From a virus (lineage: Duplodnaviria > Caudoviricetes), in IMG/VR virus record IMGVR_UViG_3300046328_000530, positions 98 to 64,097 of that record: a DNA stretch of 64,000 nucleotides; one strand, 5' to 3'. The notes beneath the pieces are model-generated. The model saw only the letters and a program-made list of their open reading frames with translations, was not told the origin of the DNA and ran no database searches. Both the position numbers and the translations under genes were made by a program. This document shows, piece by piece, positions 410-16,525 of this stretch (positions within the stretch are counted from its first letter, which is position 1; every line of letters begins with the position of its first letter).

Positions 410-857
410 AGGACAGAACCTGCTCAATGACAGATTTTTCAATTATGATACCACGACAATACAATTCGCCATCTTCCATAATGTCAAATGTGGCGTGTGG
501 CAAATCGGACTTGATACGCCAAGAACATTCCAAATCATCAGGACACCATTCTGCGACAACTTCAACTTTTGGTAATTCAAAATCCAATTCTTTGTCGTCC
601 ATAATTTCCTGCACTTCTTTAAAATCATCTTCACTCATAATATCAATTTTACCACCTTTCTTTTTGACAAGTAAAGCCGAACCACCATCGTATGCCCCGA
701 CTTCATCATATACAATACCACGAAATTCTAACAAGTCGTCACTTGCACCAAAGCAAACTAATAGACCGTTTTCCTTTGCCAATTTTTCTTCATCTTTTGT
801 AATTTCATCACGGTATTGGCGACCGTTTAAAAGTTCTGCGAATTGTTCTTTGTTCAT
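408..857 (-). CDS. conserved phage hypothetical protein (cassette cargo)
   Basis: 149 aa acidic ORF with GASDDLLEFRG motif, flanked by attC-like sites. Confidence 0.75.
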   Translation of the reverse strand: MNKEQFAELLNGRQYRDEITKDEEKLAKENGLLVCFGASDDLLEFRGIVYDEVGAYDGGSALLVKKKGGKIDIMSEDDFKEVQEIMDDKELDFELPKVEVVAEWCPDDLECSWRIKSDLPHATFDIMEDGELYCRGIIIEKSVIEQVLS

Positions 858-920
858 TTTTTTTTATTTTTAAATTGTTACTAAATAATTATTTGACACT
901 TGACGAAACCGAAAAAAACG

Positions 921-1050
921 GCACATAACAGGTGTTTGGCAAAAAAGCCCTTTTGTATTTCTATTTGACATTTGTACTAATTTTAAAAATTTGTAATTCT
1001 ATTGAATAGTCGGTTAGGGCTTCTTCGCCAAGCACCCGACCGTTATGGGC
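921..1050 (+). repeat. attC-like hairpin site, 130 bp
   Basis: GCACATAAC-A-GGTGTTTGGCAAAAAAGCCC ... GGGCTTCTTCGCCAAGCACC-CGACC-GTTATGGGC imperfect inverted repeat. Confidence 0.85.
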
Positions 1051-1069
1051 AATTGCAAGAAACACCCTG

Positions 1070-1843
1070 CTAATCGAAAAGCCCTTTTTGTTTTTCATAA
1101 TTTGTTATTAATATTTCTGTTCTACGATTTTTTAAGTTTTTCCTTTCGCCAATTATTATGACATTTAAACCTTGTTCTTTTGCTTGGTTAAGAATAAACT
1201 CATTATCAAATTCACTCATTGCAAATTTGCACCCAGTAGCTTGTAAGCAGTTAAATAAATCAATACTATCCTGTACAGTAAATGAATTGCTATAATTATC
1301 ATTCGTTCCTAAATAGGGTGGGTCGCAATAGAAAAAAGATTTTGCCTCGTCATTCCGTCCGTCCGTGTTAAATGTAAGTGTTTTAAAATATTTTCTAAAA
1401 TCATAATTAGTGAATTTACAATCATTAATCATTTCATATGTTTTGTCAATTACTTTAAAAAAAATGTTTTTGTTTTTTGTGAAGGACAAACTCATTCCAC
1501 TACTCACTACACCAATAGTAGTTAAATTGCTAAAAAATAAAAATCTTAAAGCTTTTTGTATAGGGTCTGTTTGTTCATTACTTTTGTAATATTCAAATAA
1601 ATCCGAATGAATAGGCATTAAATAAAACGCTTTTTCTAATTCTTCTTTTTGATTAATTACGACTTGAAATAAATTAAAAACTTCACTATCCAAATCATTA
1701 ACTACATTATATTTCGCTTTTGGTTTATTAAAAAACATACCACCAGCCCCAAAAAACGGCTCAAAATATATTTTATGGTCAGGAAAATATTTAATTATAT
1801 CCTGTGCTATTGCTTGTTTATTTCCTAATCTTCTTAATATCAT
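1070..1843 (-). CDS. Dam-like (D12 class) N6-adenine DNA methyltransferase
   Basis: RRLGNK, YFEPFFGAG, NDLD, YCDPPY and TEILITNY motifs; likely start MILRRLG at 1843. Confidence 0.92.
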   Translation of the reverse strand: MILRRLGNKQAIAQDIIKYFPDHKIYFEPFFGAGGMFFNKPKAKYNVVNDLDSEVFNLFQVVINQKEELEKAFYLMPIHSDLFEYYKSNEQTDPIQKALRFLFFSNLTTIGVVSSGMSLSFTKNKNIFFKVIDKTYEMINDCKFTNYDFRKYFKTLTFNTDGRNDEAKSFFYCDPPYLGTNDNYSNSFTVQDSIDLFNCLQATGCKFAMSEFDNEFILNQAKEQGLNVIIIGERKNLKNRRTEILITNYEKQKGLFD

Positions 1844-1875
1844 TTGACTAAATTTTGAGTACCCGAAAAGCAACT

Positions 1876-2010
1876 GCCCATAACAAGGGTTTTGCAAAAG
1901 CAGGGCATTAGTGGTTTATTGAACATTTTTACTACTATTAAACATTGTGCTAAATTTGAACTTTCGTACCTTGAAGCCCCACCTTCGGCAATACCCGACC
2001 CGTTAGCGGT
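1876..2010 (+). repeat. attC-like hairpin site
   Basis: GCCCATAAC-AA-GGGTTTTGCAAAAGCAGGGC ... GCCCCACCTTCGGCAATACCC-GACCC-GTTAGCGGT. Confidence 0.85.
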
Positions 2011-2014
2011 AATA

Positions 2015-2383
2015 CTACCATTCCTCACTATCAGGCAACGTATCTTCAAATCTTTCGTGTTGTTCACCGACAATTTTTAAGTCTTTTATATTTTCACATC
2101 GCATCATTGACATTCGCAAACCAATATTATTACCTATACTTAATTGATGATTTAACCAGCCGACACAATGTTCTGCATTTTCGCCAGTATCTTTTGAATG
2201 ATGACAAGCCATTATTTTCAAGGCTCTACCAAATCCAAAATCATTTTCTTTTGCAATAGTATCTTGCAAATTCTTGTGTTTAATCTCACAATATCCATCA
2301 GGAATTTCGTAAGGGTCTGTATCAACTTTCCACGGACATTTTGCACATTGGACAGTTCTTTTAAGTTTAAATTTTTCTGACAT
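2015..2383 (-). CDS. Cys/His-rich phage protein (DUF6283-like), cassette cargo
   Basis: QCAKCPW...MACHHS...HCVGWL pattern. Confidence 0.7.
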   Translation of the reverse strand: MSEKFKLKRTVQCAKCPWKVDTDPYEIPDGYCEIKHKNLQDTIAKENDFGFGRALKIMACHHSKDTGENAEHCVGWLNHQLSIGNNIGLRMSMMRCENIKDLKIVGEQHERFEDTLPDSEEW

Positions 2384-2418
2384 AATAATTCAAAACCCCT
2401 TGTGAATTAAACCGTACT

Positions 2419-2553
2419 ACCGCTAACAAGGGTTTGTAGCAATAGGGGCAGAAGTGCTTTAATTGAGCTGTGTACTTTTAATCAGCTTTTGTGGTAGGTT
2501 GAACAGTAGTGCTATAAATCCCCTATTGCTACAAGCCCAAACCGTTAGGCGAT
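2419..2553 (+). repeat. attC-like hairpin site
   Basis: ACCGCTAAC-AA-GGGTTTGTAGCAATAGGGG ... CCCCTATTGCTACAAGCCC-AAACC-GTTAGGCGAT. Confidence 0.85.
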
Positions 2554-3258
2554 ATTGTAGAGCGACCAGTTCCATATCAAATTGTGTTCTTCGACATTAA
2601 TACAGAATTGACCTGTTGGAAAATCTGAACGAACATATTTTGCCAAAAAAACAACTTTGCCTTTTCGCTCAACACGATAAACCATCCCTTCAGGAAGTTC
2701 AACGCTTTCAATTCCTTTTGTCTTTTCATTTAATAATGGCAAAAGTTGTTCAACTGTTATCGGTTGTCCTTCGTGTAATTGGCGTGGCAGTTGCAATCCG
2801 TATCCAATTGCTTTTGCTCCAAGTTCTTCAAATAAAACACGTTCATTATTTGGCGTGAAATAATCAAAAAACACTATTGGTTCAACTTCAATTCTGTAAA
2901 CAAGTCCGTGAGCTTGTGCCAGCCATTCTCCTGTTATTCTTTCGCCATTGTTTAGCATATCTGTAAAAAGCAATTCGCGTTTTTTTACCCAATCAGAAAA
3001 GTAATGATGTTGTTTATATGGGCTTGTACTTGCTTCATAGCCTGAACGGGTTAAGGCAAATATTTTGTTTTCAAACTTTGCCACGCCAACATTTGAACCA
3101 TCATACTTTTCAAACACTAATATGTTATCGTGCTTATCTCTTGTTTTTAAAGTCAAAATTCGTTCTTGACCTTCTCCAATGTAATAATCCCCTTCGCCTA
3201 ACTTCGAGTTATGCAGGTGTGGGATTGAGCCATAATTTTTTCTTCCTATTGGTTTCAT
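2545..3258 (-). CDS. ATP-dependent RNA ligase family nucleotidyltransferase
   Basis: Motif I FEKYDGSN, GEW, FFD, PEGMV and AKYVR. The stop codon lies inside the GTTA core. Confidence 0.8.
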   Translation of the reverse strand: MKPIGRKNYGSIPHLHNSKLGEGDYYIGEGQERILTLKTRDKHDNILVFEKYDGSNVGVAKFENKIFALTRSGYEASTSPYKQHHYFSDWVKKRELLFTDMLNNGERITGEWLAQAHGLVYRIEVEPIVFFDYFTPNNERVLFEELGAKAIGYGLQLPRQLHEGQPITVEQLLPLLNEKTKGIESVELPEGMVYRVERKGKVVFLAKYVRSDFPTGQFCINVEEHNLIWNWSLYNIA

Positions 3259-3284
3259 ATTTCAAATTTACTGGTTAAAAAACT

Positions 3285-3367
3285 GCGGGTAACAACAGCT
3301 AACCAAAAGTGGGCGAACTTTTACTACTGTATAGCCCGCCTTCGGTTAGCTGCAAAACGTTATGCCT
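3285..3367 (+). repeat. short attC-like hairpin site (about 83 bp)
   Basis: GCGGGTAAC-AA-CAGCTAACCAAAAGTGGGC ... GCCCGCCTTCGGTTAGCTG-CAAAAC-GTTATGCCT. Confidence 0.8.
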
Positions 3368-3599
3368 TATACTTACCGAGAAAGACATGATTGTCTTCAA
3401 AATCCTTTTTCATCCTAAAATGCTTGTGTTCGTAATTGACATTCTGAAAGTGATGTTCGCCATTTTTAACTCCAATATACTTATAGTCAATAAATGAAGG
3501 TAATTGCCAATATCCATCTTTATAAAGGTGATAATGCTTGATTTTAACTTTATCCCCGACTTGTAAATCAGAAAAAGTACAAGGCATAACGTTTTGCAC
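3360..3599 (-). CDS. small hypothetical protein (cassette cargo)
   Basis: 79 aa ORF bounded by a 24-bp near-perfect inverted repeat (3351-3374 / 3575-3598); stop codon in the core. Confidence 0.6.
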   Translation of the reverse strand: MQNVMPCTFSDLQVGDKVKIKHYHLYKDGYWQLPSFIDYKYIGVKNGEHHFQNVNYEHKHFRMKKDFEDNHVFLGKYKA

Positions 3600-3623
3600 A
3601 ATACTACGAAAGTGCGTTAATTA
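3582..3623 (-). repeat. miniature attC-like site of opposite polarity
   Basis: AGGCATAAC-GTTTT-GCAC...GTGC-GTTAATT. The stop codon of the 3617 MTase lies in the GTTA core. Confidence 0.55.
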
Positions 3624-4222
3624 AACCATTTGAGTTCAGTAGTTCCAACAAAACCTTTTTCCCACACATACCAAGCATAAGCAACAGCACTTCCACCTCC
3701 AGCAACCATCTTTTCAAATTCAGCATTTTTTGCACACATCAGCCGAGAACTTGAAACATAAATTGTCTTTGGTGGGTTTGATAGGAATAGATTTTTTCTA
3801 CCTTTCCCTTCCATAAATTGTAATTTCAAAAACATTGCAACCTTGTTTCCTGCTGGTATTATCTGCAATGATTTTTCTACAAACTCCTGTGCATATTTGT
3901 AAGGCGGGTTTGTAATTATATCTCCATTCCATTTAAGGTTATCTATTCCTAAAAAATCTGTTTCTATTTCGCCAAATCCTCTGTCCATCAAATCGCTACT
4001 CCTTACATTATAGCCTTTGCTTTCAAATACCTTGCTTAAATGTCCTTCGCCACAAGCACACTCCCAAATATTTGGCGAAAAAGTTTCAAGTTCTAAAAGC
4101 AATTCGGCTGCTTTCGGTGTGGTTGCATAGTAATCTTCATTCTGCCTTTCTTTATCTGTATGGTTGCTTGCACCTAATGTTTTGTAGATGCTGTTGCTGT
4201 TTCCTGTCCAATCTTTTGTCAT
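3617..4222 (-). CDS. phage N6-adenine DNA methyltransferase (NPPY type)
   Basis: DYYATTP, IWECACGEGHL, DIITNPPY and YAWYVW motifs. Confidence 0.88.
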   Translation of the reverse strand: MTKDWTGNSNSIYKTLGASNHTDKERQNEDYYATTPKAAELLLELETFSPNIWECACGEGHLSKVFESKGYNVRSSDLMDRGFGEIETDFLGIDNLKWNGDIITNPPYKYAQEFVEKSLQIIPAGNKVAMFLKLQFMEGKGRKNLFLSNPPKTIYVSSSRLMCAKNAEFEKMVAGGGSAVAYAWYVWEKGFVGTTELKWFN

Positions 4223-4246
4223 TTCGTTATGATTTAATTAAATTTT

Positions 4247-4444
4247 TTATTTTTTGTATTCATCGGTTATATCCAATGTGGAATTATCCAGAAAGTCTGT
4301 AAGTTTAGATGATTTATAAACAGATAGATTTCGTTCGCCACGAAGGCACATTGATAAGTAGTTTTTTCCAACTCCTATTTTGTCTGCAAGAAAGTAAACC
4401 TTAAATCCAGATTCTCTCACTTTTATCTTTAATGATTCGTTCAT
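4247..4444 (-). CDS. XRE-type helix-turn-helix regulator
   Basis: FLADKIGVGKNYLSMCLRGER HTH pattern. Confidence 0.7.
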   Translation of the reverse strand: MNESLKIKVRESGFKVYFLADKIGVGKNYLSMCLRGERNLSVYKSSKLTDFLDNSTLDITDEYKK

Positions 4445-4821
4445 GGAATCAAATAAAGTAATTATTATTGATAACAAAAATGCTAATTATAAACATGTTT
4501 TACACATTTACGATGTGACTATTGTTATTTAAAATGCATACAATTGGAAGATAGTTAGTTGTATTTTAATGAATGGATTTTTGTATGTGGAAAATACGTT
4601 TTCACTTGCGTTAAATACGTGTCACTTATTTTCAGACTCGAAGATTATCTCCCTGCGAATGCGGTAAAGGTCAATATTTTTGAATTTACTTTGCGGTAAT
4701 TCACGTTCTATTTCCTTTGATTTAAGCTCTTTTTCAGGCTTTATGGGAGGTTTAATTGCCATGATTTATATAAATGCTTTTTTTGGGTATAAATACGCTT
4801 AAATTGGCTGATAATTCCAAT

Positions 4822-4855
4822 AAAAAAACCCTGTTGAAATCTAACAACAGGGTTT
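4822..4855 (-). terminator. intrinsic terminator downstream of groES
   Basis: AAACCCTGTTG/CAACAGGGTTT stem with a U-tract on the minus strand. Confidence 0.75.
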
Positions 4856-4905
4856 AACCTAAATACATGAAAAAACTATAAAATCAATACAAATATAGTA
4901 ATTAA

Positions 4906-5202
4906 TTACACCAATATTGCATATATATCTTGCTCTCTCATTATCAAATAATCTTCTCCATCAATATTAATCTCTGTTCCTGCATTCTTTCCGAAAAGAA
5001 CCTTATCTCCTGTTTTAGTTTGCATTGGAATTAAATCTCCCGTTGTTTGTGCTATTCTTCCTTCTCCAGTACCTATTATAGTTCCTGTTTGTGGTTTTTC
5101 CTGAGCAGTTTCAGGAATGTATAATCCGGATTTTCTTACTGTTTCTGGCGAGTCGGCTTTTATAACCACCCTATCTCCGTGAGGTGTAATTGGTACTATC
5201 AT
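4906..5202 (-). CDS. groES: co-chaperonin GroES (Cpn10)
   Basis: PHGDRVVIK, SGLYIPETAQEKP, GDKVLFGKNAGTEI, YLIMREQDI. Confidence 0.95.
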   Translation of the reverse strand: MIVPITPHGDRVVIKADSPETVRKSGLYIPETAQEKPQTGTIIGTGEGRIAQTTGDLIPMQTKTGDKVLFGKNAGTEINIDGEDYLIMREQDIYAILV

Positions 5203-5204
5203 GT

Positions 5205-5390
5205 TTAAATTATGAATAAGTTATTGATTTTTAGCTCTAATTGTTCTTTCAAAGATACTAATTTTTGCTTTATTAGCTTTGATTCTTCCAATACTGTTTC
5301 TACCCTGAACTTGTAATTGGTGTAATCACGCAATGATACAAGATCGGATATAGTTAATGATTGTAATTCTTCATAATTAATCTCCATCAT
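5205..5390 (-). CDS. hypothetical protein
   Basis: 61 aa ORF packed against groES in a minus-strand operon. Confidence 0.5.
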   Translation of the reverse strand: MMEINYEELQSLTISDLVSLRDYTNYKFRVETVLEESKLIKQKLVSLKEQLELKINNLFII

Positions 5391-5565
5391 ATTTATTTAG
5401 GAAATCGTGAATCTTTTTTGCATAATCAATAAGTTCGCTAACTGATTTATTAGGAATCGTTGAAGCTATTTTAACACATTCATACATAGTATAGCTGTTT
5501 GTGTGTTTTATCGGATGAAATTCTTCTTTTTTTGATTTTTTTTCCATTTCACTTATTTTTAATTG

Positions 5566-6018
5566 TTAATAATCTATTTCTGCTTGCTCGCCAGGCAATG
5601 GTATTGATATGGACAGAAACTCCACAGCCCACCTAACAATGTCATCAACATAGTTCATAAAATCAACCGTATTCAAATCTTTTGTCCTTCCAGTTACCTG
5701 TAATACATCACCTGTTTGCTCTGATACCAAATCTTTCTTTAAGAACTTACCCTTTAATAGTTCATGTACAACCTCTGAATTAAGTTCGTGACTTGGATAG
5801 CCAATGTCAACCATTCCTCCTATTATAGAAGGAATGCAGCACCCCCAGTAATAAGAATTCTGGTTGTTGCTCCTGCTTTTACGGTATTGCTTCACTTTTA
5901 ACAACACCTTCTTCCCAGTAAAATAAGATTTCACGTCCTGATTAAAACCATTACGGTTAATAATCTTCATTTCCCCCTTTTCGTCTACGGTAGCTGTGTA
6001 GGTTAGTTCATTTGGCAT
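5566..6018 (-). CDS. NinB-like recombination protein
   Basis: RSNNQNSYYWG and TKDLNTVDFMNYVDDI...LPLP pattern. Confidence 0.7.
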   Translation of the reverse strand: MPNELTYTATVDEKGEMKIINRNGFNQDVKSYFTGKKVLLKVKQYRKSRSNNQNSYYWGCCIPSIIGGMVDIGYPSHELNSEVVHELLKGKFLKKDLVSEQTGDVLQVTGRTKDLNTVDFMNYVDDIVRWAVEFLSISIPLPGEQAEIDY

Positions 6019-6445
6019 ACGTTATTCTATCTGGTTAATAAGCCATTGTTTAAGAAGTTTTGCCTCTTTTATACTTATCATTATTGATATTAGGTTATCT
6101 TTATCGCTTGAGTTAATAAGAATTCCTGACTTGCCATTCTTAGCGATAAGAGTAGTGCCTTTTTTTTTGTTTTCTAATAATAGTTTTTCCATAATTATTT
6201 ATTACATGTTTAAATACTGCAAACCCGTGTTTGTACTTTGTTTTTATTAAAAATAGCAAACTTATTCATACTTATGTGCATCAGATATTTGTTACTATAA
6301 TTATCTCCAGCTATTTTATAATCAAATAAATTATTGTCATAGGTAAATCGCAAAGACTTTTATACAACCAAAGCAAAATATCCTTCATTTCTAAACAATA
6401 TTCGTATTCTAATTTTTTTACTTCTTTTCATGAGTTATAAATAAT

Positions 6446-6964
6446 CTACTTCTCTTTATTTTTAGTTACGTCAATAGTTATTTTTACGTCAACACCATTC
6501 TTGAACTCAAGCATCATTCTGATAGCCTTTATCCTATTTTGCTCATCCTTAGTAAAGAAATACTCAGGGTTAGCCACGTAAACACCTCTCTTAACTTGCT
6601 GTAATAGATTCAGTTTAGATAATGTCTGAAACGATATTCTAACCGTATTATCACTATATGGCTTTTTCTTACCTACCTTATGATCTGTAAAGAACTTAAT
6701 AAAACTGCCTCTAGTCAATTCATTATTAGATATATACCCTCCTGTACTCATATTGTACAGAAGCCATTCAAGCAAATTTTTAGCACAACCCTCTATTTTC
6801 ATCAATAAAATCAACGCAGAATGATACCTTTTTACTCCACTAATTGATGAATTAAACCACCCATATTCGTACTCTTTATACTCTTCTCCATCTATACTAA
6901 CAATACAATTGATTTTCTTGACGTACTTTATTGATTTAGTCTTTTTATCCATTTTAATACTCAT
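6446..6964 (-). CDS. RepL-like winged-helix DNA-binding/replication protein
   Basis: TVRISFQTLSKLNLLQQVKRGVYVANPEYF C-terminal wHTH signature. Confidence 0.6.
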   Translation of the reverse strand: MSIKMDKKTKSIKYVKKINCIVSIDGEEYKEYEYGWFNSSISGVKRYHSALILLMKIEGCAKNLLEWLLYNMSTGGYISNNELTRGSFIKFFTDHKVGKKKPYSDNTVRISFQTLSKLNLLQQVKRGVYVANPEYFFTKDEQNRIKAIRMMLEFKNGVDVKITIDVTKNKEK

Positions 6965-6978
6965 GGTAAATATCTATT

Positions 6979-7123
6979 TAAGATAGCCACACTATCCTAT
7001 ATAGGCTGTTTTTAAACAGACTCCCAAAGATACTATATAATATCTTAATTATCAAAGTAAAATTAACAATAAATTCTGTAGTTAAGATAGCCACACTATC
7101 CTACTAAGATAGCCACACTATCC
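6979..7123. repeat. three 19-bp direct repeats TAAGATAGCCACACTATCC (iteron/operator-like)
   Basis: Copies at 6979-6997, 7083-7101 and 7105-7123 (22-bp period). Each contains the dyad GATAG-N5-CTATC. Confidence 0.9.
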
Positions 7124-7710
7124 CAACTATTTAAATAATCGCAGTCAATAGACCCTTAAACCCAATAAACACCGTTTTACAATCCTTATATAATCCAATG
7201 CTTTGCTATTCCTTCCCAACTTATCACAATTATCCATAACCTCATAATATTTTATCTAAATGACGCATATACCAAACTTATACAGAATACCTGACATAAC
7301 TAATTCCAATAATAACTACCAGAGTTAATTACTTAATTAGAAGTGACGACATCGGTAAGAATATCGGACTATCCCACACAGAACACCCCCCTATCTTTGA
7401 AAACCCAACCATGCTACCTGTCAACCGGGTGGGCATGGTTTGTAAATATATTTGATTGCTCAGTTGTATATGGCTAACTACGGCTCAACGATAGCACACA
7501 CTACAGCATGATCATGAGTTACCAGCATCTATTGCGTTGACCATTGCAATACCCAAGCTACGGATCACATCACCAATATAATTTGTTTAAATATCGTTAT
7601 AGCAGAATTAAATTTGGTTGATGCAGCTCGTTAATTAACTACCTTTGCGCATCAGGTAATAATGCCTGATTTAAAATGGCTTATTTTAAAGCGATACAAT
7701 CAATTAAAAT

Positions 7711-8097
7711 ATGAAAGGTAATACAATTGTTAAGCGAAGCGGAGAAAGTGGATTAAAAGACGTTAAAATAGGTAAATTAGGGATTACACCCTCTTTAAAA
7801 CCAAGCAGTATAATACCTTTCCTTCCATTCATTCGATTAAGCATGATATTTAAGCAAAAATTAGGGTTATCTACTCCGTGCATGTACCTATTATTCATGG
7901 TTTACGAATGTAATATTATTGGTAGTGAAGCTACTGTTAGTAAGCTGTCAGATATGCTGTACGATAGTCATAATGGGTACAGAAGTATACGTTATAGGCT
8001 AATAACGTTAATATCGAATAATATGGTGTATAAAGTGGATAATAAGTACTACTTGACAGAGCTATCTATTACAGCTATCAGTAATATACAAGTATAG
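7711..8097 (+). CDS. putative winged-helix protein
   Basis: 128 aa ORF with wHTH-like C-terminus (YYLTELS), preceded by a TACCTTTG -7 box at 7640-7647. Confidence 0.5.
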   Translation: MKGNTIVKRSGESGLKDVKIGKLGITPSLKPSSIIPFLPFIRLSMIFKQKLGLSTPCMYLLFMVYECNIIGSEATVSKLSDMLYDSHNGYRSIRYRLITLISNNMVYKVDNKYYLTELSITAISNIQV

Positions 8098-8200
8098 AAG
8101 TACATACTATATATGTATGCTATTCGATATTTAATATTGAAAATAATTTGGCTGATAATGAGAAAGTTAAGTAATAAAAAGGCACTTTAGTAAAAATAAA

Positions 8201-8232
8201 TTTGGAGAATAAAAAAATCTGCCGTACACTTG
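8201..8232 (+). promoter_or_regulatory. Bacteroidota sigmaA-type early promoter
   Basis: TTTG (8201-8204), 20 nt spacer, TACACTTG (8225-8232); one mismatch to the TAnnTTTG consensus. Confidence 0.55.
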
Positions 8233-8467
8233 TATCGTAGTAACGCAATAGATACTAATCTATAAGTTACTACCCGGTGCTAAGGCGGACAATAGCAGGC
8301 GAGCGAATCGGCCTACATTGATAAGAGTTTACTGTTACTATAAACACATGCCAGGGCGGCAAGCTCTACCGTATGCAGGTTAAAAGCATTTATCATGCAA
8401 ATAGTATGAGTGTAGAAGGAGCGAAGTCTAAAAAACTTGGATGCCTATGGTAGTGTCAACTATCTTC

Positions 8468-8533
8468 ATAAGCATAATGCAGCCTATATAATATAGCCGG
8501 TTACAAGCCCGAATAAATGCAGAGTATGTTTAT
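8468..8533 (+). ncRNA. twister self-cleaving ribozyme, type P1
   Basis: P1 AUAAGCA/UGUUUAU, U^AA site, P2 UGCA/UGCA, P3 CUAUA/UAUAG, CCGGUUACAAGCCCG and GAGUA. Co-linear with the P1 twister consensus (UAA-NNNN-GC...CCGGUNNCAAGCCCG...GAG). Confidence 0.85.
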
Positions 8534-8551
8534 TTATTTAAAAAAGAAATC

Positions 8552-8725
8552 ATGAAAAAATTAATTGTAGCAATGACCCTAATGACAGCACTTAGTAGCT
8601 GTTCGCTTAAAAAAGAAATACCATCAATGGAGTACAGATGTACATACGATGGCAATAGTACAGAGGTGCAATGCTTAAGAGCTTCGGATTCTGATAGTGA
8701 GTATTGCAAAAAACACAAAAATTAA
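8552..8725 (+). CDS. small lipoprotein (57 aa, not in the ORF track)
   Basis: MKKLIVAMTLMTALSS-C lipobox and a Cys-rich mature part. Confidence 0.7.
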   Translation: MKKLIVAMTLMTALSSCSLKKEIPSMEYRCTYDGNSTEVQCLRASDSDSEYCKKHKN

Positions 8726-8767
8726 TCATCAAATAAATAATCATTTTAAAAACTAAAAACTAAAGAC

Positions 8768-9022
8768 ATGAAAACTTTAAACACAGTATTAGGCCCCGTT
8801 ACTATCACAGATGCAAGAATCCAGAAAGCATCTGGTTATGGTCAGTATACCATAATCATTGAAATTGAATTTGAAGGAAAAAAAATCACAATTAAAGAAC
8901 ACTCGAATGATAGCCGCCTTTTTGATAAAGCATACGGAGAAGATGACCATGCGGCAATAGTTATGGAAGATGCTAAAAACATCATAGAAGATGCAGTTGA
9001 TGACTATATCCACTCATTGTAA
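8768..9022 (+). CDS. early hypothetical protein
   Basis: 84 aa ORF with an A-rich Bacteroidota-type leader. Confidence 0.65.
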   Translation: MKTLNTVLGPVTITDARIQKASGYGQYTIIIEIEFEGKKITIKEHSNDSRLFDKAYGEDDHAAIVMEDAKNIIEDAVDDYIHSL

Positions 9023-9058
9023 TTCAAATAACCATAAAAAATTAAAAACTAAAAAATC

Positions 9059-9322
9059 ATGAAAAAATTAATATTAACTATCGCTATCGCATTAACTTCA
9101 TTAATAACAGTAGCACAGCCGAAGTCAACCAAAGATGCACAGGGTAACTATTTACAAGTAAAATCAGATCACGAAAGTACTCCTGCAAAAATTACAGGGA
9201 AAACCTTTACAACTTCAAAAGGTGAAGTTTTTCCTGTAATGGAAAGCAAAAACGGTAAACTGTTTATTGTAAGAACAGCAAAAGTTTCAGGAAAGCAGTA
9301 CAAACAATACTTACAAGACTGA
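9059..9322 (+). CDS. small exported protein
   Basis: Signal peptide MKKLILTIAIALTSLITVA-Q. Confidence 0.65.
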   Translation: MKKLILTIAIALTSLITVAQPKSTKDAQGNYLQVKSDHESTPAKITGKTFTTSKGEVFPVMESKNGKLFIVRTAKVSGKQYKQYLQD

Positions 9323-9364
9323 TTATTAAACAATAGTATAACCAAACAAAAAAAACTAAATAAG

Positions 9365-9571
9365 ATGGAATTAAAAAACAAAGTTTACAGACCTTTCAAA
9401 TCACGTTTAATGAATAAAGAGTCTATTCTTTTATGTGACAAGGCATATGCAATGCCAATGACTTACAACGGAGAAGCACAGGCAGAAAAGGCGGCTAAAA
9501 AATACAATGGTAAAGCAATTCGTATTCCAATGCAGATGAATAGATACTATATTGAAAAACAGTACCTATGA
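9365..9571 (+). CDS. hypothetical protein
   Basis: 68 aa ORF in the early operon. Confidence 0.55.
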   Translation: MELKNKVYRPFKSRLMNKESILLCDKAYAMPMTYNGEAQAEKAAKKYNGKAIRIPMQMNRYYIEKQYL

Positions 9572-9589
9572 AAATAACCAATAAACAAA

Positions 9590-10123
9590 ATGGAAACTAC
9601 ACTATTTGAAGTAAAATTCAACAACGGAAGTAAATTTAATGTTTTTTGTTCTGGCTCTGTAAAAATGCCTTATCATAAGGGTGATCTGCTTTGGGTAAGA
9701 GAAACCTGGAGTCAAGGAAGTATTGAAAACGGAAAGCACACAGGCATTAGGTATAAGGCAGATGATGAAAGTTATAATGTAAGATGGAAGCCCTCCATCT
9801 TCATGCCTAAAGAAGCTGCACGTATATGGTTAAAAATTACGGATATAAAAGTTGAACGCCTGCAAGATATAACTGAAGCTATAAATGAAGGTGTGTTACT
9901 ACACAAACATGGTATACATTGGCTGAACTATATACATGAGAAATGGGAAACTACCCAGTTTATTTATAGCAGTGATACTGCTAAAAAAAGCTTTTTAACG
10001 TTGTGGAGCAGTATTAATAATAACGGTATTTGGGCGCAAACAATGATAGCTAATCCCCAGGTTTGGGTAGTGAGTTTTGAAGTAGTTAGTAAAACCGGAA
10101 AGCCAAAGGAGGTGAAATCATGA
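9590..10123 (+). CDS. ASCH/PUA-like phage protein, apparently N-terminally truncated or fused
   Basis: PYHKGDLLWVRETW, WKPSIFMPKEAARIWLKITDIKVERLQDI, NPQVWVVSF. Confidence 0.7.
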   Translation: METTLFEVKFNNGSKFNVFCSGSVKMPYHKGDLLWVRETWSQGSIENGKHTGIRYKADDESYNVRWKPSIFMPKEAARIWLKITDIKVERLQDITEAINEGVLLHKHGIHWLNYIHEKWETTQFIYSSDTAKKSFLTLWSSINNNGIWAQTMIANPQVWVVSFEVVSKTGKPKEVKS

Positions 10124-10668
10124 GTTACGGAACCGTTCAACAGGTTGGAAGCCTGTATAAAATAGATTGCAAACCAATTCCTAAAATAAAAAAAAATATG
10201 ATAACTATAATTAATGGCAATGAAGAGGAGGTTGTTTATATTGATTATAAAAAAGGCAATATACCACATCAAGTATATACGGCTGATAGTGATGGATGGA
10301 TGCATTCTTGGGATTTTTTTTGTAACAATGGGGATAAAAAAGATATTAGTTTTTATAATTCGGGTAGTGGTGGAAATAAAAAATCAATAGAGGCTTCAAA
10401 TTGGGCTAAAGGCTTTAAAGGTAAATATTGGTTGGGACAAGGGTGTGATTTAAACGGTAAATCAAATGGGATAAAACTCGAAAAACCTTTAAGAATAAAA
10501 GGATATTATTGCTCATCTATAAATCCATTTAAAGTTGGCGAAGAAACAAATAGTAGAGAGTATTGCGAAAAATGTGAATTTGAAAGTACTGAATTTTGCT
10601 ACAAACATAAATACGAAGACAATGAAGGAAATGAGCGCTGGATTAGTGATAATAAATATTCAGGCTAA
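10120..10668 (+). CDS. hypothetical protein with C-terminal Cys cluster
   Basis: 182 aa ORF with ATGA overlap to the upstream gene. Confidence 0.6.
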   Translation: MSYGTVQQVGSLYKIDCKPIPKIKKNMITIINGNEEEVVYIDYKKGNIPHQVYTADSDGWMHSWDFFCNNGDKKDISFYNSGSGGNKKSIEASNWAKGFKGKYWLGQGCDLNGKSNGIKLEKPLRIKGYYCSSINPFKVGEETNSREYCEKCEFESTEFCYKHKYEDNEGNERWISDNKYSG

Positions 10669-10936
10669 TTTTTAACCACTTAGAACACACACAGGTGGGG
10701 AGGTTTTTAAAACTTGCACTTTTTAAATACACTTTAAATTTAATACGATGGACATACCATTTTACATAAACAAGAAAAATAAATTCTCTAAATACTACTT
10801 TGATTCAAAAAATAACAAGTGGATATACAAAGATAATTTAAATGTTTACATTTTAGGATTAAAAACTAACAGAACTATTGACAGGGATAAAAAAATTAGA
10901 AAATCAAGATACGATTTAAAGTATTAAAATTATAGA

Positions 10937-11227
10937 ATGAGATCACTTATAAAAGAAACAACGGAAGATACCCTGATTGAATACCTATCAGAGCTAACCA
11001 TAGACGAGTTTGAAACACTTCTTAGGTATTGCGGAAAGTATCTGTTTACATGCATGGATAACCCTGCTATAAACCTTCATTTAGAACGAATATACGACTA
11101 TAGGGGTATTTGGCGTGTCGAGTTTACAGATAGTTCGTTTAATATAGAAACATACACCTATAAAATATCAGAACTAACAACAGAAGATCAACAAGAAATA
11201 ATTAACACAATTCAAGAAATTATATAA
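10937..11227 (+). CDS. hypothetical protein
   Basis: 96 aa ORF directly upstream of ERF. Confidence 0.55.
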   Translation: MRSLIKETTEDTLIEYLSELTIDEFETLLRYCGKYLFTCMDNPAINLHLERIYDYRGIWRVEFTDSSFNIETYTYKISELTTEDQQEIINTIQEII

Positions 11228-11229
11228 TC

Positions 11230-11919
11230 ATGACAAATAAGACTATTAACATATACCAAAAACTTCTTTGCATTCAGAAAAGAGTAATAGGGCTTGGAAA
11301 AGATAAGGCAGGTTTCAATTACAGATATGTAACTGGAGATAAAGTAATAGGAGAGATTAAGCCCATAATGAATGAACTTGGCCTAATACTAAAACAAGAG
11401 GTGCTTTCAATAGAGAATATACGTCAGGATTATAACACAAAGTTAGGAGCAAAAAGCGAGATTCTGTCAAAAGTAATGATGAGATTTACATGGGTTGATT
11501 GCGAAACAGGGGAAAAGGATGAAAACTTATTCGGAGCTAACGGGCAGAATGATTTTGATAAAGGTTGCGGGTCTGCATTTACGTATGCAGAGAGGTATTT
11601 TTTATTAAAATTCTTCCATATTGCAACAGATGAGGATGATATAGATAACCCTGACAGACAAACTACAGCAGTTGCCCAACCAAATGTAACACCATTTAAG
11701 CCACAGGAACGACATTCAGAACCTATAATCCACCCAGATTTGCTTCCGGGAACTGATAAATGGCTTGTTTGCGTCAACGGGATAGCAGAAGGAAAAGCAA
11801 CCGTTGAGAAAATTAAACTTAAAAACACGCTTAGTGTAGCAAATGAAAAACTTCTTGAAAAAGAAGCACAAACGATTAAACAAGAATTGGATAAAATCGC
11901 AAACCCTAAACTAAAATAA
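11230..11919 (+). CDS. ERF-family single-strand annealing protein
   Basis: GSAFTYAERYFLLKFFHIATDEDD ERF motif. Confidence 0.88.
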   Translation: MTNKTINIYQKLLCIQKRVIGLGKDKAGFNYRYVTGDKVIGEIKPIMNELGLILKQEVLSIENIRQDYNTKLGAKSEILSKVMMRFTWVDCETGEKDENLFGANGQNDFDKGCGSAFTYAERYFLLKFFHIATDEDDIDNPDRQTTAVAQPNVTPFKPQERHSEPIIHPDLLPGTDKWLVCVNGIAEGKATVEKIKLKNTLSVANEKLLEKEAQTIKQELDKIANPKLK

Positions 11920-11921
11920 TC

Positions 11922-12518
11922 ATGTCAGGATCAAAAAATACATTTATGGAAGAGCAAGAGAAATTTATTCCTCAAATTCAAAGAGAAGAAACAAAAATTA
12001 CCTTTGAACTCCCATTAATAGCACCTAAACGCTCTATTTACAACATAGAGCTTGACCATTTAGAAATAATGGCAGAAATAGAAAACAATGAAGGTGAAAT
12101 TACAGAAGAAATTGCAGAAAAGTTAGAGCTAACCATAGACGAGTTTGAAACTAAAGCGACTTCTTATGCTTATGTAATCAAGCATTATGATGACGAGTTG
12201 GCTAACATACAAAACGAAGTAGACAGGCTAAGGAAAATTGCGTTAAGCAAGATTAACGCCAGAGAGGGAGTTAAAGGGCGTATATATGCTGCCATGATTC
12301 GGTTTAATATAGATAAAGTAGAAAATAATAACATTAAGCTGTCCTTTCGTAAATCACAAAGCCTTGTAATAGACGAGGGAGCGGTTATCCCCGATAATTA
12401 CATAAATGTAAAGGAGGTAGAAACAATTGATAAGAAGGCTTTAAAAGAGGCTATTTTAGAGGGTTCTACTTTTGCTGGTATTTATGTATCCGAAAACAAG
12501 AATTTACAAATCCGTTAG
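11922..12518 (+). CDS. siphovirus Gp157-family protein
   Basis: Coiled coil plus LSFRKS...IDKKALKEAI...NLQIR. Confidence 0.8.
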   Translation: MSGSKNTFMEEQEKFIPQIQREETKITFELPLIAPKRSIYNIELDHLEIMAEIENNEGEITEEIAEKLELTIDEFETKATSYAYVIKHYDDELANIQNEVDRLRKIALSKINAREGVKGRIYAAMIRFNIDKVENNNIKLSFRKSQSLVIDEGAVIPDNYINVKEVETIDKKALKEAILEGSTFAGIYVSENKNLQIR

Positions 12519-12523
12519 AACAA

Positions 12524-12763
12524 ATGAAAAGTATTAGCACAGAAAAATCAAGATTAACACTAAAGCAATTCTTTAACCTGCACAAGATACCTGTACACTA
12601 TGTGGCAACTTTAGCAGTTATGAATAGATCTCTTCTTCATAACTACATATCAGGAGTTAGTAAGCCAAGCAATAAACAACTGAAAAGAATTGAATTAGCA
12701 ATTCACAAGTTAAGCGACGATATCAAATCAGTAAAATTAATAATAGGCAAAAATGAGTTCTGA
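12524..12763 (+). CDS. helix-turn-helix protein
   Basis: MNRSLLHNYISGVSKPS...RIELAIH pattern. Confidence 0.65.
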   Translation: MKSISTEKSRLTLKQFFNLHKIPVHYVATLAVMNRSLLHNYISGVSKPSNKQLKRIELAIHKLSDDIKSVKLIIGKNEF

Positions 12764-13205
12764 AATTAATATATTAGCCATTGATCAAGCAAGCAATGCT
12801 GGGTGGTGTACGAAAAATGGTTATGGAGTTTGGGACTTTAATACAAGGCGTGATGAATCTTCTGGTATGAAAATGCTCAGGTTTCGATCAAAACTTGTAG
12901 AGGTTTGCAAATTAGAGGAAATTAACCTTATTGTTTACGAAAGAGTTGCTGGTCAACATAAAAACTCTATTATTCATGCCGCTAAAATGGTGGCTATGAT
13001 TGAGACTTTTTGCGAAGAGAATAATATAAACTATAAAGCCGTATCAGCAAGTGAGATTAAGAAATTTGCAACAGGAAAGGGAAATGCAAATAAAGATAAG
13101 ATGATTGAATCTGCAAGAGTTCAATACGGATATGATGGGAATGATGATAATGAAGCAGATGCTATACATATTTATCATCACACAATATCAGACCTTAATA
13201 TTTAG
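12753..13205 (+). CDS. RuvC-like Holliday junction resolvase
   Basis: ILAIDQA, VYE, IKKFATGKGNANK, DDNEADA. Confidence 0.85.
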   Translation: MSSEINILAIDQASNAGWCTKNGYGVWDFNTRRDESSGMKMLRFRSKLVEVCKLEEINLIVYERVAGQHKNSIIHAAKMVAMIETFCEENNINYKAVSASEIKKFATGKGNANKDKMIESARVQYGYDGNDDNEADAIHIYHHTISDLNI

Positions 13206-13231
13206 TGAATCACAATTTAAACCAATTAATT

Positions 13232-13393
13232 ATGACAACTTTACCAAGAAAACAAAATCCATTCTTTGAAGAGGATTTTAATTACAAACAAATTGACGAT
13301 TCTGTCATGTACGACAGAGAACGGGAAGAAGAAATAAACTACGGTGTTGAAGATTTTGATGATGATTACGAAAGCGAGGTAGATCATGAGTAG
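13232..13393 (+). CDS. small acidic hypothetical protein
   Basis: D/E-rich short ORF. Confidence 0.45.
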   Translation: MTTLPRKQNPFFEEDFNYKQIDDSVMYDREREEEINYGVEDFDDDYESEVDHE

Positions 13394-13562
13394 TTCAGAT
13401 AAAACCAATATTGAAGTGCTGAAAATTTCACTTGTAATGGCTAAGAAAATATTCAACGAAAGTAAATACCTTTCAGAGGAGTTTATAGGAGGCTTTAAAT
13501 GCGCTATGGATATGGCACTTGATAGAGTTGAAAACATACTGGAAGAAAGAGACATTAAATAA
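13386..13562 (+). CDS. hypothetical protein (58 aa, not in the ORF track)
   Basis: MSSSDKTNIEVLKISL...EERDIK fills the operon gap. Confidence 0.45.
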   Translation: MSSSDKTNIEVLKISLVMAKKIFNESKYLSEEFIGGFKCAMDMALDRVENILEERDIK

Positions 13563-13581
13563 AATAATTAAAATTAATGTT

Positions 13582-14145
13582 ATGGAAAGAAATATCTACA
13601 AAATAGGAAAAGAATTGTACATCACTTCTGATGAAAAGGTCTCGCCAAGCCAAGATTGGTACAATGAATTTTTGTCTTGTTGTAAATCAAAAGAAGAATG
13701 TCATTGTAATAAAAAAAGAAGTATTCAATCAACGGTATATCCGGCAGTATACCGCCCTTTTATCAAAAATAATCAAACTAAAGCAATGATAAGAAGATTT
13801 AATTTCTGGGGATTTTACATCAGGAGCGAAGCAAAAAAAAATAGTTTACCAACCGCAAAAATGATAGTTGGTACAATCAAAGTTGAGCCGGTTACCGCTT
13901 CAGAAAAGATGGAGAACCTTGTCGATCAGGCTTATGAAGTATTAACCCTGAATAGAAATCCTATAGAAGATAATAAAAAACTTCAGGCCACGGAAATGGA
14001 TCATAAAACATATCAAAATCAAGGTAGACGGCCGGATCAAATGGAATATGATGCTAACTGGGGTTTTAGATGCATTACATGTATAGTAGTAATCATTGCA
14101 CTGATAGTAGCAGCCAAATACTTCAATTTAAGTATTAACAACTAA
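13582..14145 (+). CDS. hypothetical membrane-anchored protein, probably a mosaic of gene fragments
   Basis: C-terminal TM helix; internal start candidate MIRRF at 13787. Confidence 0.4.
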   Translation: MERNIYKIGKELYITSDEKVSPSQDWYNEFLSCCKSKEECHCNKKRSIQSTVYPAVYRPFIKNNQTKAMIRRFNFWGFYIRSEAKKNSLPTAKMIVGTIKVEPVTASEKMENLVDQAYEVLTLNRNPIEDNKKLQATEMDHKTYQNQGRRPDQMEYDANWGFRCITCIVVIIALIVAAKYFNLSINN

Positions 14146-14593
14146 ATATAGAACCAAAATGGAAATTTATTTAATAAAACTAAACGCCTTAATGGTAATT
14201 GATACTTGCGATCACTTAACCGATTTACATAATAAGAGAGAGGCGACTAAAGCCAATCCTTACTATCAAGTTCCGTAGAAAGAACTTGATAGTAAGAGAC
14301 CTTAGTGAAATAGACATTGATATAAATGAAACTATTCTAACAGGACTTTTGAAATGAGTTACGCTATACTCCCTATCAAATAATAGATTGATGTAAAGGA
14401 ACTACAACTTATGCTGTTTTGGTATTTGGATCAGGCATCTAATATCTTCTTAAATAATAAAGGTTATGTTCTGAAAGCTTCTGACCTCAAACTGAAACGA
14501 TATGCTTCGACACGAAACGACGGTAAGTTTGGCTTTTCTCACTCCGGTAACCACACAAACAATTAAATATTAACCATAAAAATCACTAAAAAA

Positions 14594-14920
14594 ATGAGCG
14601 AATTAAAAGTAGTAGTAAAAAGAATCGGGAAAACACAACAAATAACCGAAAAGTTTAAGAAAAGAGAATTAGTTGTAGATACTAAAGATGAGAAATACCC
14701 TCAAGTATTGATTTTTCAAGGCATTCAAGACATGTGTGAAAAGATGGATGAATTAAGGATTGAGGATGATATAACTATTAATTACAACCTTAAAGGTCGG
14801 GAGTATAATGCAAAGGATGGAAGTATTGGTGTTTTTAACACGCTTGAAATGTTGAAATTTCACATAAATCAAACGTCAGCAAATACAATAGAGTCTGATA
14901 ATGATGATCTACCTTTTTAA
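14594..14920 (+). CDS. single-stranded DNA-binding protein (DUF3127 family)
   Basis: FKKRELVV, YPQ, NLKGREY and an acidic DDLPF tail. Confidence 0.85.
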   Translation: MSELKVVVKRIGKTQQITEKFKKRELVVDTKDEKYPQVLIFQGIQDMCEKMDELRIEDDITINYNLKGREYNAKDGSIGVFNTLEMLKFHINQTSANTIESDNDDLPF

Positions 14921-14921
14921 T

Positions 14922-15314
14922 ATGAGTCCTCAAATCGCAGTCGGAATTGAACGCGCCGCTTTAATGCAGTACGTTCACAAAAAACAGCCTGCCCACATAA
15001 GAGACAATTTAGCATTTGAGAATATAATCAAAGTAGTTACACTTCATACAAATATTACCAAAGAGCAAATGCAGTCCTCTTCGAGAAAAAGAGACGTGGT
15101 AACAGCGAGGCATATAGCAATGTTAATTATAAAAAATTGCACATCAATTAGTTTGGTTGAGATAGGTAAAAGATTTGGAGGTAGAGACCATTCTACTGTC
15201 ATATACTCTATCCAATCATCAAAAGACTTGTTCAAATACAATATTTATTTCCGTGATTTAATGAACAAAATAACAAGAGAATCTATTGTTATAGATTTAT
15301 TAAACGGAGTGTGA
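14922..15314 (+). CDS. stand-alone DnaA C-terminal (domain IV) HTH protein
   Basis: SRKRDVVTARHIAM...SLVEIGKRFGGRDHSTVIYS. Confidence 0.85.
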   Translation: MSPQIAVGIERAALMQYVHKKQPAHIRDNLAFENIIKVVTLHTNITKEQMQSSSRKRDVVTARHIAMLIIKNCTSISLVEIGKRFGGRDHSTVIYSIQSSKDLFKYNIYFRDLMNKITRESIVIDLLNGV

Positions 15315-15339
15315 AAAAAGCTAAATAGAATTACAAAAG

Positions 15340-15732
15340 ATGAATAGAAATACTGTTGTAAATTCATTTAATTGGTATGGCGATTTGAATGATTTTATTG
15401 ATGATGTAAAACCTGATAGGTGGAAAGTATTTCAAGCATTAAGAGTTGAGGGGCAAAATGACAAACAATTTGATGAAATAAAAGTTACCGAAGAACAATT
15501 TGAAAGCTACATAAACAACCATAATCATCAAAAATCTATTGTGGTAGAAGACAATGAGGCAATGACAGGAAGTTATCTTTTGATTGACCCACAAGGTAGA
15601 TTATTTGAAAACTCAAAAGGGAAACATACATATTCAAAAACATTACAAGATAATGATATTGACAGTTGTTTGTCAGAAATAAATTTAAACAGAGAAATGT
15701 TTGTCAAACGAGGGGGCATCTATGAATGGTAG
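15340..15732 (+). pseudogene. C-terminal fragment of a prokaryotic viperin (radical SAM antiviral enzyme)
   Basis: NTVVN..N, PDRWKVFQ, GQND, MTGSYLLIDPQGRLF and RGGIYEW; the CxxxCxxC N-terminal half is absent. Confidence 0.8.
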
Positions 15733-15746
15733 GTGTCGTTAAGGTT

Positions 15747-15886
15747 GCTCCTAACGTTTCGCAGATTTGCGATGGGCGGGATTTAGAAAACGAATTTATC
15801 AACTTAAAACAAAAATTTATATGGAACACGAAACATCATTAAACAACGAAAAACATCGCCTAACAGCAGATTTGCTATTAGGCGAT
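15747..15886 (-). repeat. attC-like site of minus polarity with an internally inverted right arm
   Basis: GCTCCTAAC-GTTTC-GCAGATTTGCGATGGGCG ... CGCC[TAACAGCAGATTTGCTATTA]GGCGAT. Confidence 0.7.
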
Positions 15887-16525
15887 GTTTTTCTCCCACT
15901 TCTCAAAAAATTTGCATCAAATTATGATATGAGAGAATGGATGGCAACCCCTTTCAATGTAGGAAATAGAACGGTTGCGACAAATGGCTATTGCTTATTA
16001 TCAACTCCTTTTCAAGAAGGGTTTAATGATAGAAGCGAAAAAACAAAAACAGTTTATCCTATGGATCATAAGATAAACAAACCTATTCCAGTTGATGAAT
16101 TAAAGCAAAAATTAAAAGAATTTCCTTTAGTGGATTGCTTTGATGAAATTGAAACAACGTGCGATGCTTGTAATGGCGATGGAGAGGTAGAATTTGAGTT
16201 TTATCATAGTGGAAAAACCTATGAAATGGAACACGATTGCCCTGTTTGCGATGGGCAAGGAGTAACAAATACACAATCAAAAACACCAAACGGTAAAAAG
16301 GAACTTGACTACAACAAATTCTTTCAAATTGGTAAGTGCATTTTCAATGTTGCAAGAGTAGAAGAATTGATTTATGTCGCTGACTATTTAAAATCCGATG
16401 TTGTAAATATTGTAAACCAAACGGAGAAAAACAGAGCTTCTTTATTTACAATAAAAGATGTCGAAATGTTGGTAATGCCTATGATGTGTGATGATGAACG
16501 GAATGTCGCTCAAAATATCGCCTAA
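15821..16525 (+). CDS. beta-clamp-like phage protein with inserted CxxCxGxG zinc finger (cassette cargo)
   Basis: VATNGYCL and terminal LVMPM resemble DnaN motifs; CDACNGDG and CPVCDGQG. The start lies inside the repeat and the stop inside the CCTAAC core. Confidence 0.55.
   Translation: MEHETSLNNEKHRLTADLLLGDVFLPLLKKFASNYDMREWMATPFNVGNRTVATNGYCLLSTPFQEGFNDRSEKTKTVYPMDHKINKPIPVDELKQKLKEFPLVDCFDEIETTCDACNGDGEVEFEFYHSGKTYEMEHDCPVCDGQGVTNTQSKTPNGKKELDYNKFFQIGKCIFNVARVEELIYVADYLKSDVVNIVNQTEKNRASLFTIKDVEMLVMPMMCDDERNVAQNIA

Follow-up and report, generated by a model that had tools for sequence, protein, structure and literature searches.

A type-P1 twister ribozyme and a putative structured RNA between divergent gene blocks of a viral genome

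Judged by its sequence and its covariance-model alignment, the segment 8468-8533 (+) of the DNA analysed here is a type-P1 twister ribozyme, and a conserved, predicted five-helix RNA domain lies directly 5' of it on the same strand. We propose that this ribozyme is probably functional within a rightward transcription unit, where it would cut the transcript, releasing a folded leader and leaving an mRNA with a 5'-OH end. Cleavage itself, the start position of the transcript, the existence of the leader as a separate, stable molecule and any influence on the stability or translation of the mRNA are the parts of this proposal that we infer from the sequence.

The window, by which we mean the whole stretch of 64,000 nucleotides that was analysed, is nearly the whole of an IMG/VR virus record (64,097 bases, linear, estimated to be 88% complete). 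It derives from an uncultivated freshwater phage whose host probably belongs to the Bacteroidota. DNA of the window, whole or in part, occurs in 16 runs, all of them freshwater metagenomes that an automated guess assigns to DNA and none of which is recorded as RNA. The Erf gene shares 71% nucleotide identity with Flavobacterium phage 'elemo' genomes, and weaker matches are to Cellulophaga and Olleya phages. G+C content ranges from 30 to 42% along the window and is about 32% for the phage overall. A leftward block (408-6964, -) encodes methyltransferases, an RNA-ligase-family protein, GroES, and NinB-like and RepL-like proteins, while a rightward block (8552-19,700, +) comprises small orphan genes followed by Erf, Gam-like, RuvC-like, SSB and methyltransferase genes. 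From 19,922 rightwards the genes lie on the minus strand and encode methyltransferases, an endolysin, virion proteins, a terminase and replication proteins. The ribozyme and the upstream domain sit in the 1.6-kb control region that separates the divergent leftward and rightward blocks.

Identity of the ribozyme and its viral relatives

Twister-P1 (RF03160) was the sole Rfam match with E<=1 on either strand of the 64 kb when cmscan was run under E-value thresholds. The match covers 8471-8530 (+) with 56.4 bits, an E-value of 5.3e-10 and model positions 1-68 of 68, and a scan of the whole record placed it at the same location. It does not reach the gathering score of 67.2 bits, which is a curation threshold and not a structural feature, and a full-window cmscan at gathering thresholds returned no matches. 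A sequence-only reading of this DNA had proposed a twister with all P1-type elements and had named an Infernal search with twister-P1 as its check; that search yields a full-length match, though under the gathering cut-off, with the stems and pseudoknots in place.

The alignment and the sequence together delimit a 7-bp P1 (8468-8474 with 8527-8533) that reaches both ends of 8468-8533, so the limits originally assigned to the element were exact. Within it lie a 4-bp P2 (8478-8481 with 8518-8521), a short P3 of 5 bp with a 3-nt loop (8484-8488 with 8492-8496) and P4 (8498-8500 with 8509-8511; C8498-G8511, G8499-C8510 and G8500-C8509), all on the plus strand. Two pseudoknots, named and defined following PMC5408937, join L2 to L4 (T2; G8482-C8508 and C8483-G8507) and L4 to L1 (T1; C8504-G8524, A8503-U8525 and U8502-A8526, reading UAC:GUA). 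The order P1-P2-P3-P4-P2'-P1' places the termini in P1, which is the P1 permutation, and the essential stems P1, P2 and P4, both pseudoknots and the U-A step are all present. The predicted scissile bond, U8475/A8476, aligns to model U5/A6 and is the very site that the sequence-only reading had named; a U-A cleavage site adjoining P1 has been described for twisters (PMC5408937).

Upper-case consensus positions are identical at 28 of 35. Three of the seven that differ fall in the shortened P3 loop and four make up two compensated T1 pairs, and the twister-P1 alignment contains no changed unpaired core position. The outermost P4 position, C8497/A8512, is a C-A mismatch and unpaired. A nested secondary-structure fold of the ribozyme is not more stable than its shuffles (z -0.24), as one would expect of an RNA that is small, AU-rich and pseudoknotted; such a fold cannot model pseudoknots. 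Compared with the type-P1 twister as described (RF03160; PMC5408937), the element shares P1, P2 and P4, the optional P3, the two pseudoknots, conserved L1 and L4, the U-A site and the P1 termini; it differs in its T1, which Rfam gives as CCC:GGG, its short P3, the C-A at the base of P4 and its score under gathering. A sigma-70-type promoter-like match also overlaps the ribozyme (8465-8492, +; 10 of 12 letters, the second hexamer within the P3 hairpin), and it is probably incidental because this promoter type differs from that described for Bacteroidetes.

Other viral twisters put the modest score in context. The core pattern occurs in at least 117 IMG/VR loci. Among the matches listed, 97 of 99 distinct instances have Watson-Crick pairing at both variable T1 positions, the consensus CC:GG appearing in 2 and UA:UA, the window's own combination, in 6 with the window included. 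We counted covariation over the P1, P2, P4, T1 and T2 pairs in an alignment of 84 distinct viral instances, again among the matches listed. Paired cells made up 93.0%, as against 76.1 +/- 0.6% after shuffling and 17-46% with a slid partner; for T1 cells the figure was 99.6%, its two variable pairs showed 33 and 22 double changes, and the outermost P4 pair was unpaired in 4 of the 84 sequences. The fixed letters of the search pattern force many invariant columns, and the weight of these figures is carried by the free columns only. Of 87 viral twisters parsed, 83 have a U before the invariant AA (among the matches listed). The 27 twister matches in 20 other viral loci range from 44.5 to 73.0 bits, 26 of them under 67.2, which makes 56.4 bits an ordinary score among viral twisters. 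The shortfall of the window's twister is largely due to its compensated T1 pseudoknot, which the model cannot score. The Rfam gathering score thus misses most viral twisters, whose pseudoknot usually departs from CCC:GGG.

Viral twisters also tend to carry structure immediately 5' of P1. The 40 nt preceding P1 have a median folding energy of -11.1 kcal/mol in the 84 distinct instances (among the matches listed), compared with -5.6 in 1,317 windows taken from these loci as controls. In 54 of the 84 (among the matches listed), no more than 6 nt separate P1 from the end of a hairpin of -8 kcal/mol or lower; related members of the set do not count as independent. P0 denotes a hairpin on the 5' side of P1. 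The hairpins seen here are probably this optional stem, which is listed for twisters (PMC5408937), and their enrichment is then probably already known. In the window, the position of a P0-type hairpin is occupied by the closing stem of a far larger domain. In one viral locus (L082) a hairpin is followed by a T-run that serves as the 5' strand of P1, so that a terminator-like element and the cut site nearly coincide.

A rough survey of gene context at 50 viral twister loci (among the matches listed) found 22 that overlap a naive ORF call and, among the 28 non-overlapping loci, 23 with a co-oriented upstream ORF. Several loci hold further structured RNAs: a ROOL RNA (L009, 873-1546, -; 337 bits) begins 14 nt after a same-strand twister, RAGATH-4 and RAGATH-36 lie around one twister (L003), a pistol ribozyme sits ~800 nt from another (L006), and three twisters fall inside ~1.1 kb (L032). 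A blastn search of the 66-nt ribozyme against deposited phages returned nine records, four of them weak (E>=2); the better ones are Clostridium phage c-st (filed twice), a crAss-like uncultured phage and two faecal phages, all unannotated at the match. Across 185,579 bacterial and archaeal species, each represented by one genome, the twister pattern gave 73 matches that are mostly from Clostridia by title; five loci in four records belong to Bacteroidota, and none is from Flavobacteriia by title. When 151 genomes of one Bacteroidota class were sampled, with up to 31 candidates scored per genome, the only match was in the centre genome, which had itself been chosen for its twister. For a twister, the probable host is thus a less usual one. 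Phage twisters as such are already a known kind, since reviews place bacterial twisters and other small ribozymes near phage genes, where they may process mRNAs (PMC6765202, PMC5408937).

A conserved domain directly upstream of the ribozyme

Patterns built from the sequence 5' of the ribozyme led to a single other record, G001 (29,326 bases, 41% complete), which is present in viral and metagenome collections. It is colinear with the window and distantly related to it, with about 20-52% amino-acid identity in scattered tblastx segments. At the nucleotide level, its 3.9-kb locus (L120) has one match in the whole window, 79 nt long, 83.5% identical and located at window 8410-8487. A twister stands at the syntenic place in G001 (55.8 bits), with a 3-bp P1 of other sequence, no P3 and a regular A-U pair at the base of P4; its T1, UCC:GGA, contains one further compensated pair. 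The genes flanking the G001 twister are unrelated to those of the window.

The alignment of these two sequences defines a conserved RNA domain of 113 nt at 8344-8456 (+), which ends 11 nt before the ribozyme starts. According to RNAalifold, it is closed by S1, a 9-bp stem with one bulge (8344-8347 and 8349-8353 with 8448-8456), within which lie H1 (8354-8357/8363-8366), H2 (8373-8376/8386-8389), H3 (8393-8398/8404-8409) and H4 (outer part 8417-8419/8444-8446, inner part 8424-8427/8435-8438), forming a multi-helix junction with conserved unpaired stretches. Over the window segment 8330-8475 and its G001 counterpart, the consensus has 30 pairs, 12 of them changed on both sides, and an energy of -30.95 kcal/mol. 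Column shuffles that keep the conservation classes average -7.45 +/- 2.95 with a minimum of -18.45, and none of 300 is as low (z about -8). All 60 of 60 cells are paired, compared with 25-41% when partners are slid, which leaves 0-2 double changes; the structure was derived from the same two sequences, and this favours it in the comparison. Double changes fall in H1 (3), H2 (3), H3 (4) and inner H4 (2). S1 and outer H4 are invariant save for one G-U/A-U change, so that covariation is silent on both. In single-sequence folds of both phages S1 is the dominant conformer (pair probabilities 0.54-0.98), and a fold of 201 nt contains both the domain and the twister stems, next to each other. The reverse complement of the domain alignment reaches -16.7, and this energy asymmetry, together with the G-U pairs, puts the domain on the strand of the ribozyme. 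A leftward small RNA from the same block was considered and set aside because the minus-strand consensus fold is weak (-10 in the sub-region, -16.7 for the reverse complement).

The evidence for the domain comes from two sequences, the window and G001. The whole leader 8205-8475, folded alone, has a z of -1.4, and the G001 leader one of -0.5. A stretch of 7 nt (8330-8336), located 8 nt 5' of S1, is identical in G001 amid diverged flanks and could be a single-stranded part of the domain. Contigs from four metagenome runs compared over 8000-9400 had no letter differences in ribozyme or domain, and so supplied no natural variants.

Searches for further copies covered several collections. Against the 4227 Rfam models, the window copy gave only chance-level matches (E>=1) and the G001 copy none. 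Exact and degenerate patterns run over viral and metagenome contigs recovered G001 and otherwise chance or coding matches, and blastn of 7120-8560 against deposited phages found no matches. A model of the domain, R1, detected only the window and G001 over 80 sources (317,140 bases), neither a domain nor a twister core over eight loci with NinB relatives, and no matches in a sample of 151 genomes from the class to which a Mucilaginibacter genome belongs. On these sequence comparisons the domain, alone or paired with a twister, appears to be absent from Rfam and to be the new part of this locus.

The 3' strand of S1 also takes part in an alternative. A 6-bp hairpin with a 4-nt loop (8449-8464, +; -5.6 kcal/mol) ends 3 nt 5' of P1 and shares 8449-8454 with S1, so that the two are mutually exclusive. 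In competition with S1 it is the minor conformer (pair probabilities 0.01-0.36), and it is invariant in G001, where covariation speaks neither for nor against it. The hairpin contains a motif (8451-8466) that recurs in three exact 18-nt direct repeats (6980-6997, 7084-7101 and 7106-7123, -) located 5' of the leftward RepL-like gene (6446-6964, -; PF05732, 28.5 bits, cut-off 20.3). The 13 letters common to the repeats and 8451-8466 match the window four times where none is expected. Every copy points the same way as the gene block beside it, and all four can fold as short RNA hairpins (-5.6 to -7.8 kcal/mol). These copies could be iterons or operators recognized as DNA by the RepL-like protein, promoter parts, or nut-like RNA sites. 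The 29 kb of G001 (41% complete) contain no RepL-like homologue, no homologue of the 128-aa ORF described below and no second copy of the motif.

Flanking genes and the start of transcription

An A/U-rich spacer of 18 nt (8534-8551, +), predicted to be unpaired, separates the ribozyme from the ATG at 8552 of a 57-aa product (8552-8725, +), the first gene 3' of the ribozyme. The spacing to a small lipoprotein gene, as first proposed, is thus borne out; the product is a probable lipoprotein by its MKK...LSSC signal and lipobox, and the Pfam LPAM_1 match scores 16.6 bits, under the cut-off of 20. Among 5.8 billion proteins, the only homologue found was the protein itself. An A at -3 and A-rich upstream positions are initiation features in Bacteroidetes (PMC6847099), and the spacer fits this description. 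Mean unpaired probability over 8534-8571 is 0.72-0.75 irrespective of how far the RNA extends 5', so that cleavage has no computed effect on translation initiation. The idea of an insulator, in which the cut frees the start site from leader structure, was rejected on the same values, which hold in all constructs.

Since the spacer is only 18 nt long, transcripts that reach the lipoprotein gene must start 5' of or inside the ribozyme. The Bacteroidetes promoter consensus is TTTG/TANNTTTG (PMC6847099). On the plus strand, TANNTTTG matches at 7392, 7447, 7609, 7640 and 8197, that is five times in 1.6 kb compared with 43 on the whole 64-kb strand, and a TTG at a -33-like distance accompanies those at 7609 and 7640 only. 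The candidate -7 element nearest to the ribozyme, TAAATTTG (8197-8204, +; found by regular expression and lacking the -33 TTG), would give a leader of about 265 nt. Any of the five candidate -7 starts would put domain and twister on one RNA. A promoter at 7600-7626 shared with G001 was also considered, and the alignment shows none. Two of the boxes, at 7392 and 7447, fall in a non-coding island (7340-7540) with a G+C of 0.42-0.47 and a terminator-like hairpin at 7417-7433 (+). This island matches no Rfam family, and the notion that the islands 7340-7540 and 8200-8440 are inverted copies was dropped because their similarity is not significant.

A co-oriented orphan ORF lies further upstream (7711-8097, +; 128 aa by its longest start, 84 aa in the form on record). 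It has no PHROG or Pfam matches, and no terminator-like site was found on the plus strand between it and the ribozyme; it may be co-transcribed upstream of the ribozyme. The earlier placement of the twister in the leader of an early operon is thus only plausible, since any candidate start puts the domain and the twister on the same RNA. The rightward block contains the Erf, Gam-like, RuvC-like, SSB and methyltransferase genes, the co-oriented ORF lies upstream with no intervening terminator-like site, and the word 'early' draws on gene content alone.

Proposed processing, competing readings and known systems

We propose that the ribozyme would fold co-transcriptionally, forming P1-P4 and the two pseudoknots, and would then cut between U8475 and A8476. 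The upstream product would be a non-coding leader whose 3' part is the 113-nt domain and which would carry a 2',3'-cyclic phosphate at its end, 19 nt after the domain. Downstream of the cut, the mRNA would begin with a 5'-OH at A8476 and retain the ribozyme body, compact and 58 nt long, as its 5' part, 18 nt from the start codon. Cleavage would uncouple the fate of the leader RNA from that of the mRNA and alter the end chemistry of both. The sequence-only reading had the cut release an upstream RNA; the conserved structured domain directly 5' on the same strand lends that claim unexpected support, with the release step itself inferred. Bacterial twisters and hammerheads have been proposed to process mRNAs near phage genes (PMC6765202), and part of one report (PMC8782182) indicates that twister pseudoknots can persist in the 3' fragment, with its 5' end buried.

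The sequence-only reading also suggested that an mRNA with a 5'-OH end may be more stable; an active ribozyme could have the opposite outcome, with the 5'-OH marking the mRNA for rapid decay and thereby constitutively damping, or limiting in time, the lipoprotein and the genes that follow. The only well-understood self-cleaving ribozyme in a bacterial 5' UTR, glmS, works through cleavage and subsequent degradation (PMC6765202), and no gain in start-site accessibility is predicted from cleavage in the window. However, the compact 3' fragment with a buried 5' end, as far as the consulted part of PMC8782182 describes it, argues for protection, and a conserved constitutive self-destruct element ahead of a recombination and replication block would seem costly. 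We consider decay unlikely. It is more doubtful still that the twister is a natural allosteric device, in which binding of a ligand, or of a protein of the phage or the host, to the domain would shift the balance between S1 and the alternative hairpin beside P1 and so gate cleavage and downstream expression. The mutual exclusion of S1 and the hairpin, both invariant in two diverged phages, would suit such a switch, as would a multi-helix junction with conserved unpaired stretches placed 11 nt from P1; engineered aptamer-twister fusions do work (PMC5408937). Yet no complementarity was found that would let either conformer disrupt the twister core, the hairpin is the minor conformer, the downstream genes are orphans or recombination genes that suggest no ligand class, and two sequences are all that bear on the matter. 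If such a device were real, it would set the cut fraction of the rightward transcript and hence the levels of the lipoprotein and the recombination genes.

Two further readings seem very improbable to us. One takes the invariant block 8441-8466 as a promoter or operator, with TATCTT as a -7-like element or an iteron-like site for the RepL-like protein, and has transcription begin a few nt 5' of the cut, so that the twister would merely remove a short triphosphate oligonucleotide close to the promoter. It can point to the four motif copies where none is expected, their orientation with the gene blocks and the placement of three of them 5' of the RepL-like gene, as well as to a motif-to-cut distance of 8-9 nt in both phages. 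But conservation of the block is already explained by RNA pairing, the box is missing the G of TANNTTTG, and G001 does not share the -33 TTG, has a single motif copy and contains neither a RepL-like nor a 128-aa homologue in its 29 kb (41% complete); moreover, this reading assigns no role to the 5' strand of S1, which is conserved 100 nt upstream. The other, that the element is an inactive relic or a chance look-alike and which is just as far-fetched, would draw on the score under gathering, the C-A mismatch in P4 and the many computationally predicted ribozyme candidates that failed to cleave according to a portion of PMC8782182. Against it stand the E-value of 5.3e-10, a strongly conserved core that is kept and whose changes are solely compensatory, and the diverged G001, which keeps a syntenic twister with a further compensatory change. 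A functional twister that separates a folded leader from a 5'-OH mRNA thus remains the reading that we favour.

Known systems offer partial parallels to this proposed arrangement. The HDV-like theta ribozymes (PMC10879173), as presented in the part of that source we draw on, are likewise small self-cleaving phage ribozymes located beside a structured RNA, where the cut defines an RNA end; they have another fold and a tRNA partner, whereas the partner in the window is a 113-nt domain outside the known families, followed by a protein gene. Like the twister of the window, glmS (PMC6765202) is a self-cleaving RNA 5' of a coding region whose cut leaves a 5'-OH mRNA, but it needs GlcN6P, whereas twisters are not known to use a cofactor, and its cut triggers decay. 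ROOL and RAGATH RNAs are structured RNAs that stand beside twisters in viral contigs (L009 and L003); the domain 8344-8456 differs from these families in that it matches none of them in Rfam.

The leftward block also contains a gene for an RNA ligase family protein of 237 aa (2545-3258, -; Pfam PF09414, 63.2 bits; PHROG 38169). The coexistence of a self-cleaving ribozyme and an RNA ligase gene in one phage is noteworthy; no G001 counterpart of the stretch 2545-3258 was found by tblastx.

Twisters are widespread and their biological role is still largely speculative (PMC6765202, PMC5408937). Genetic tools for Flavobacteria, the probable host group, are in print, as the available part of PMC2483708 describes. 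The present locus offers a compact test case, with a single ribozyme flanked 5' by a conserved folded RNA and followed, 18 nt to its 3' side, by an orphan lipoprotein gene. If confirmed, the upstream domain would represent a new family of RNAs in which a ribozyme generates the 3' end.
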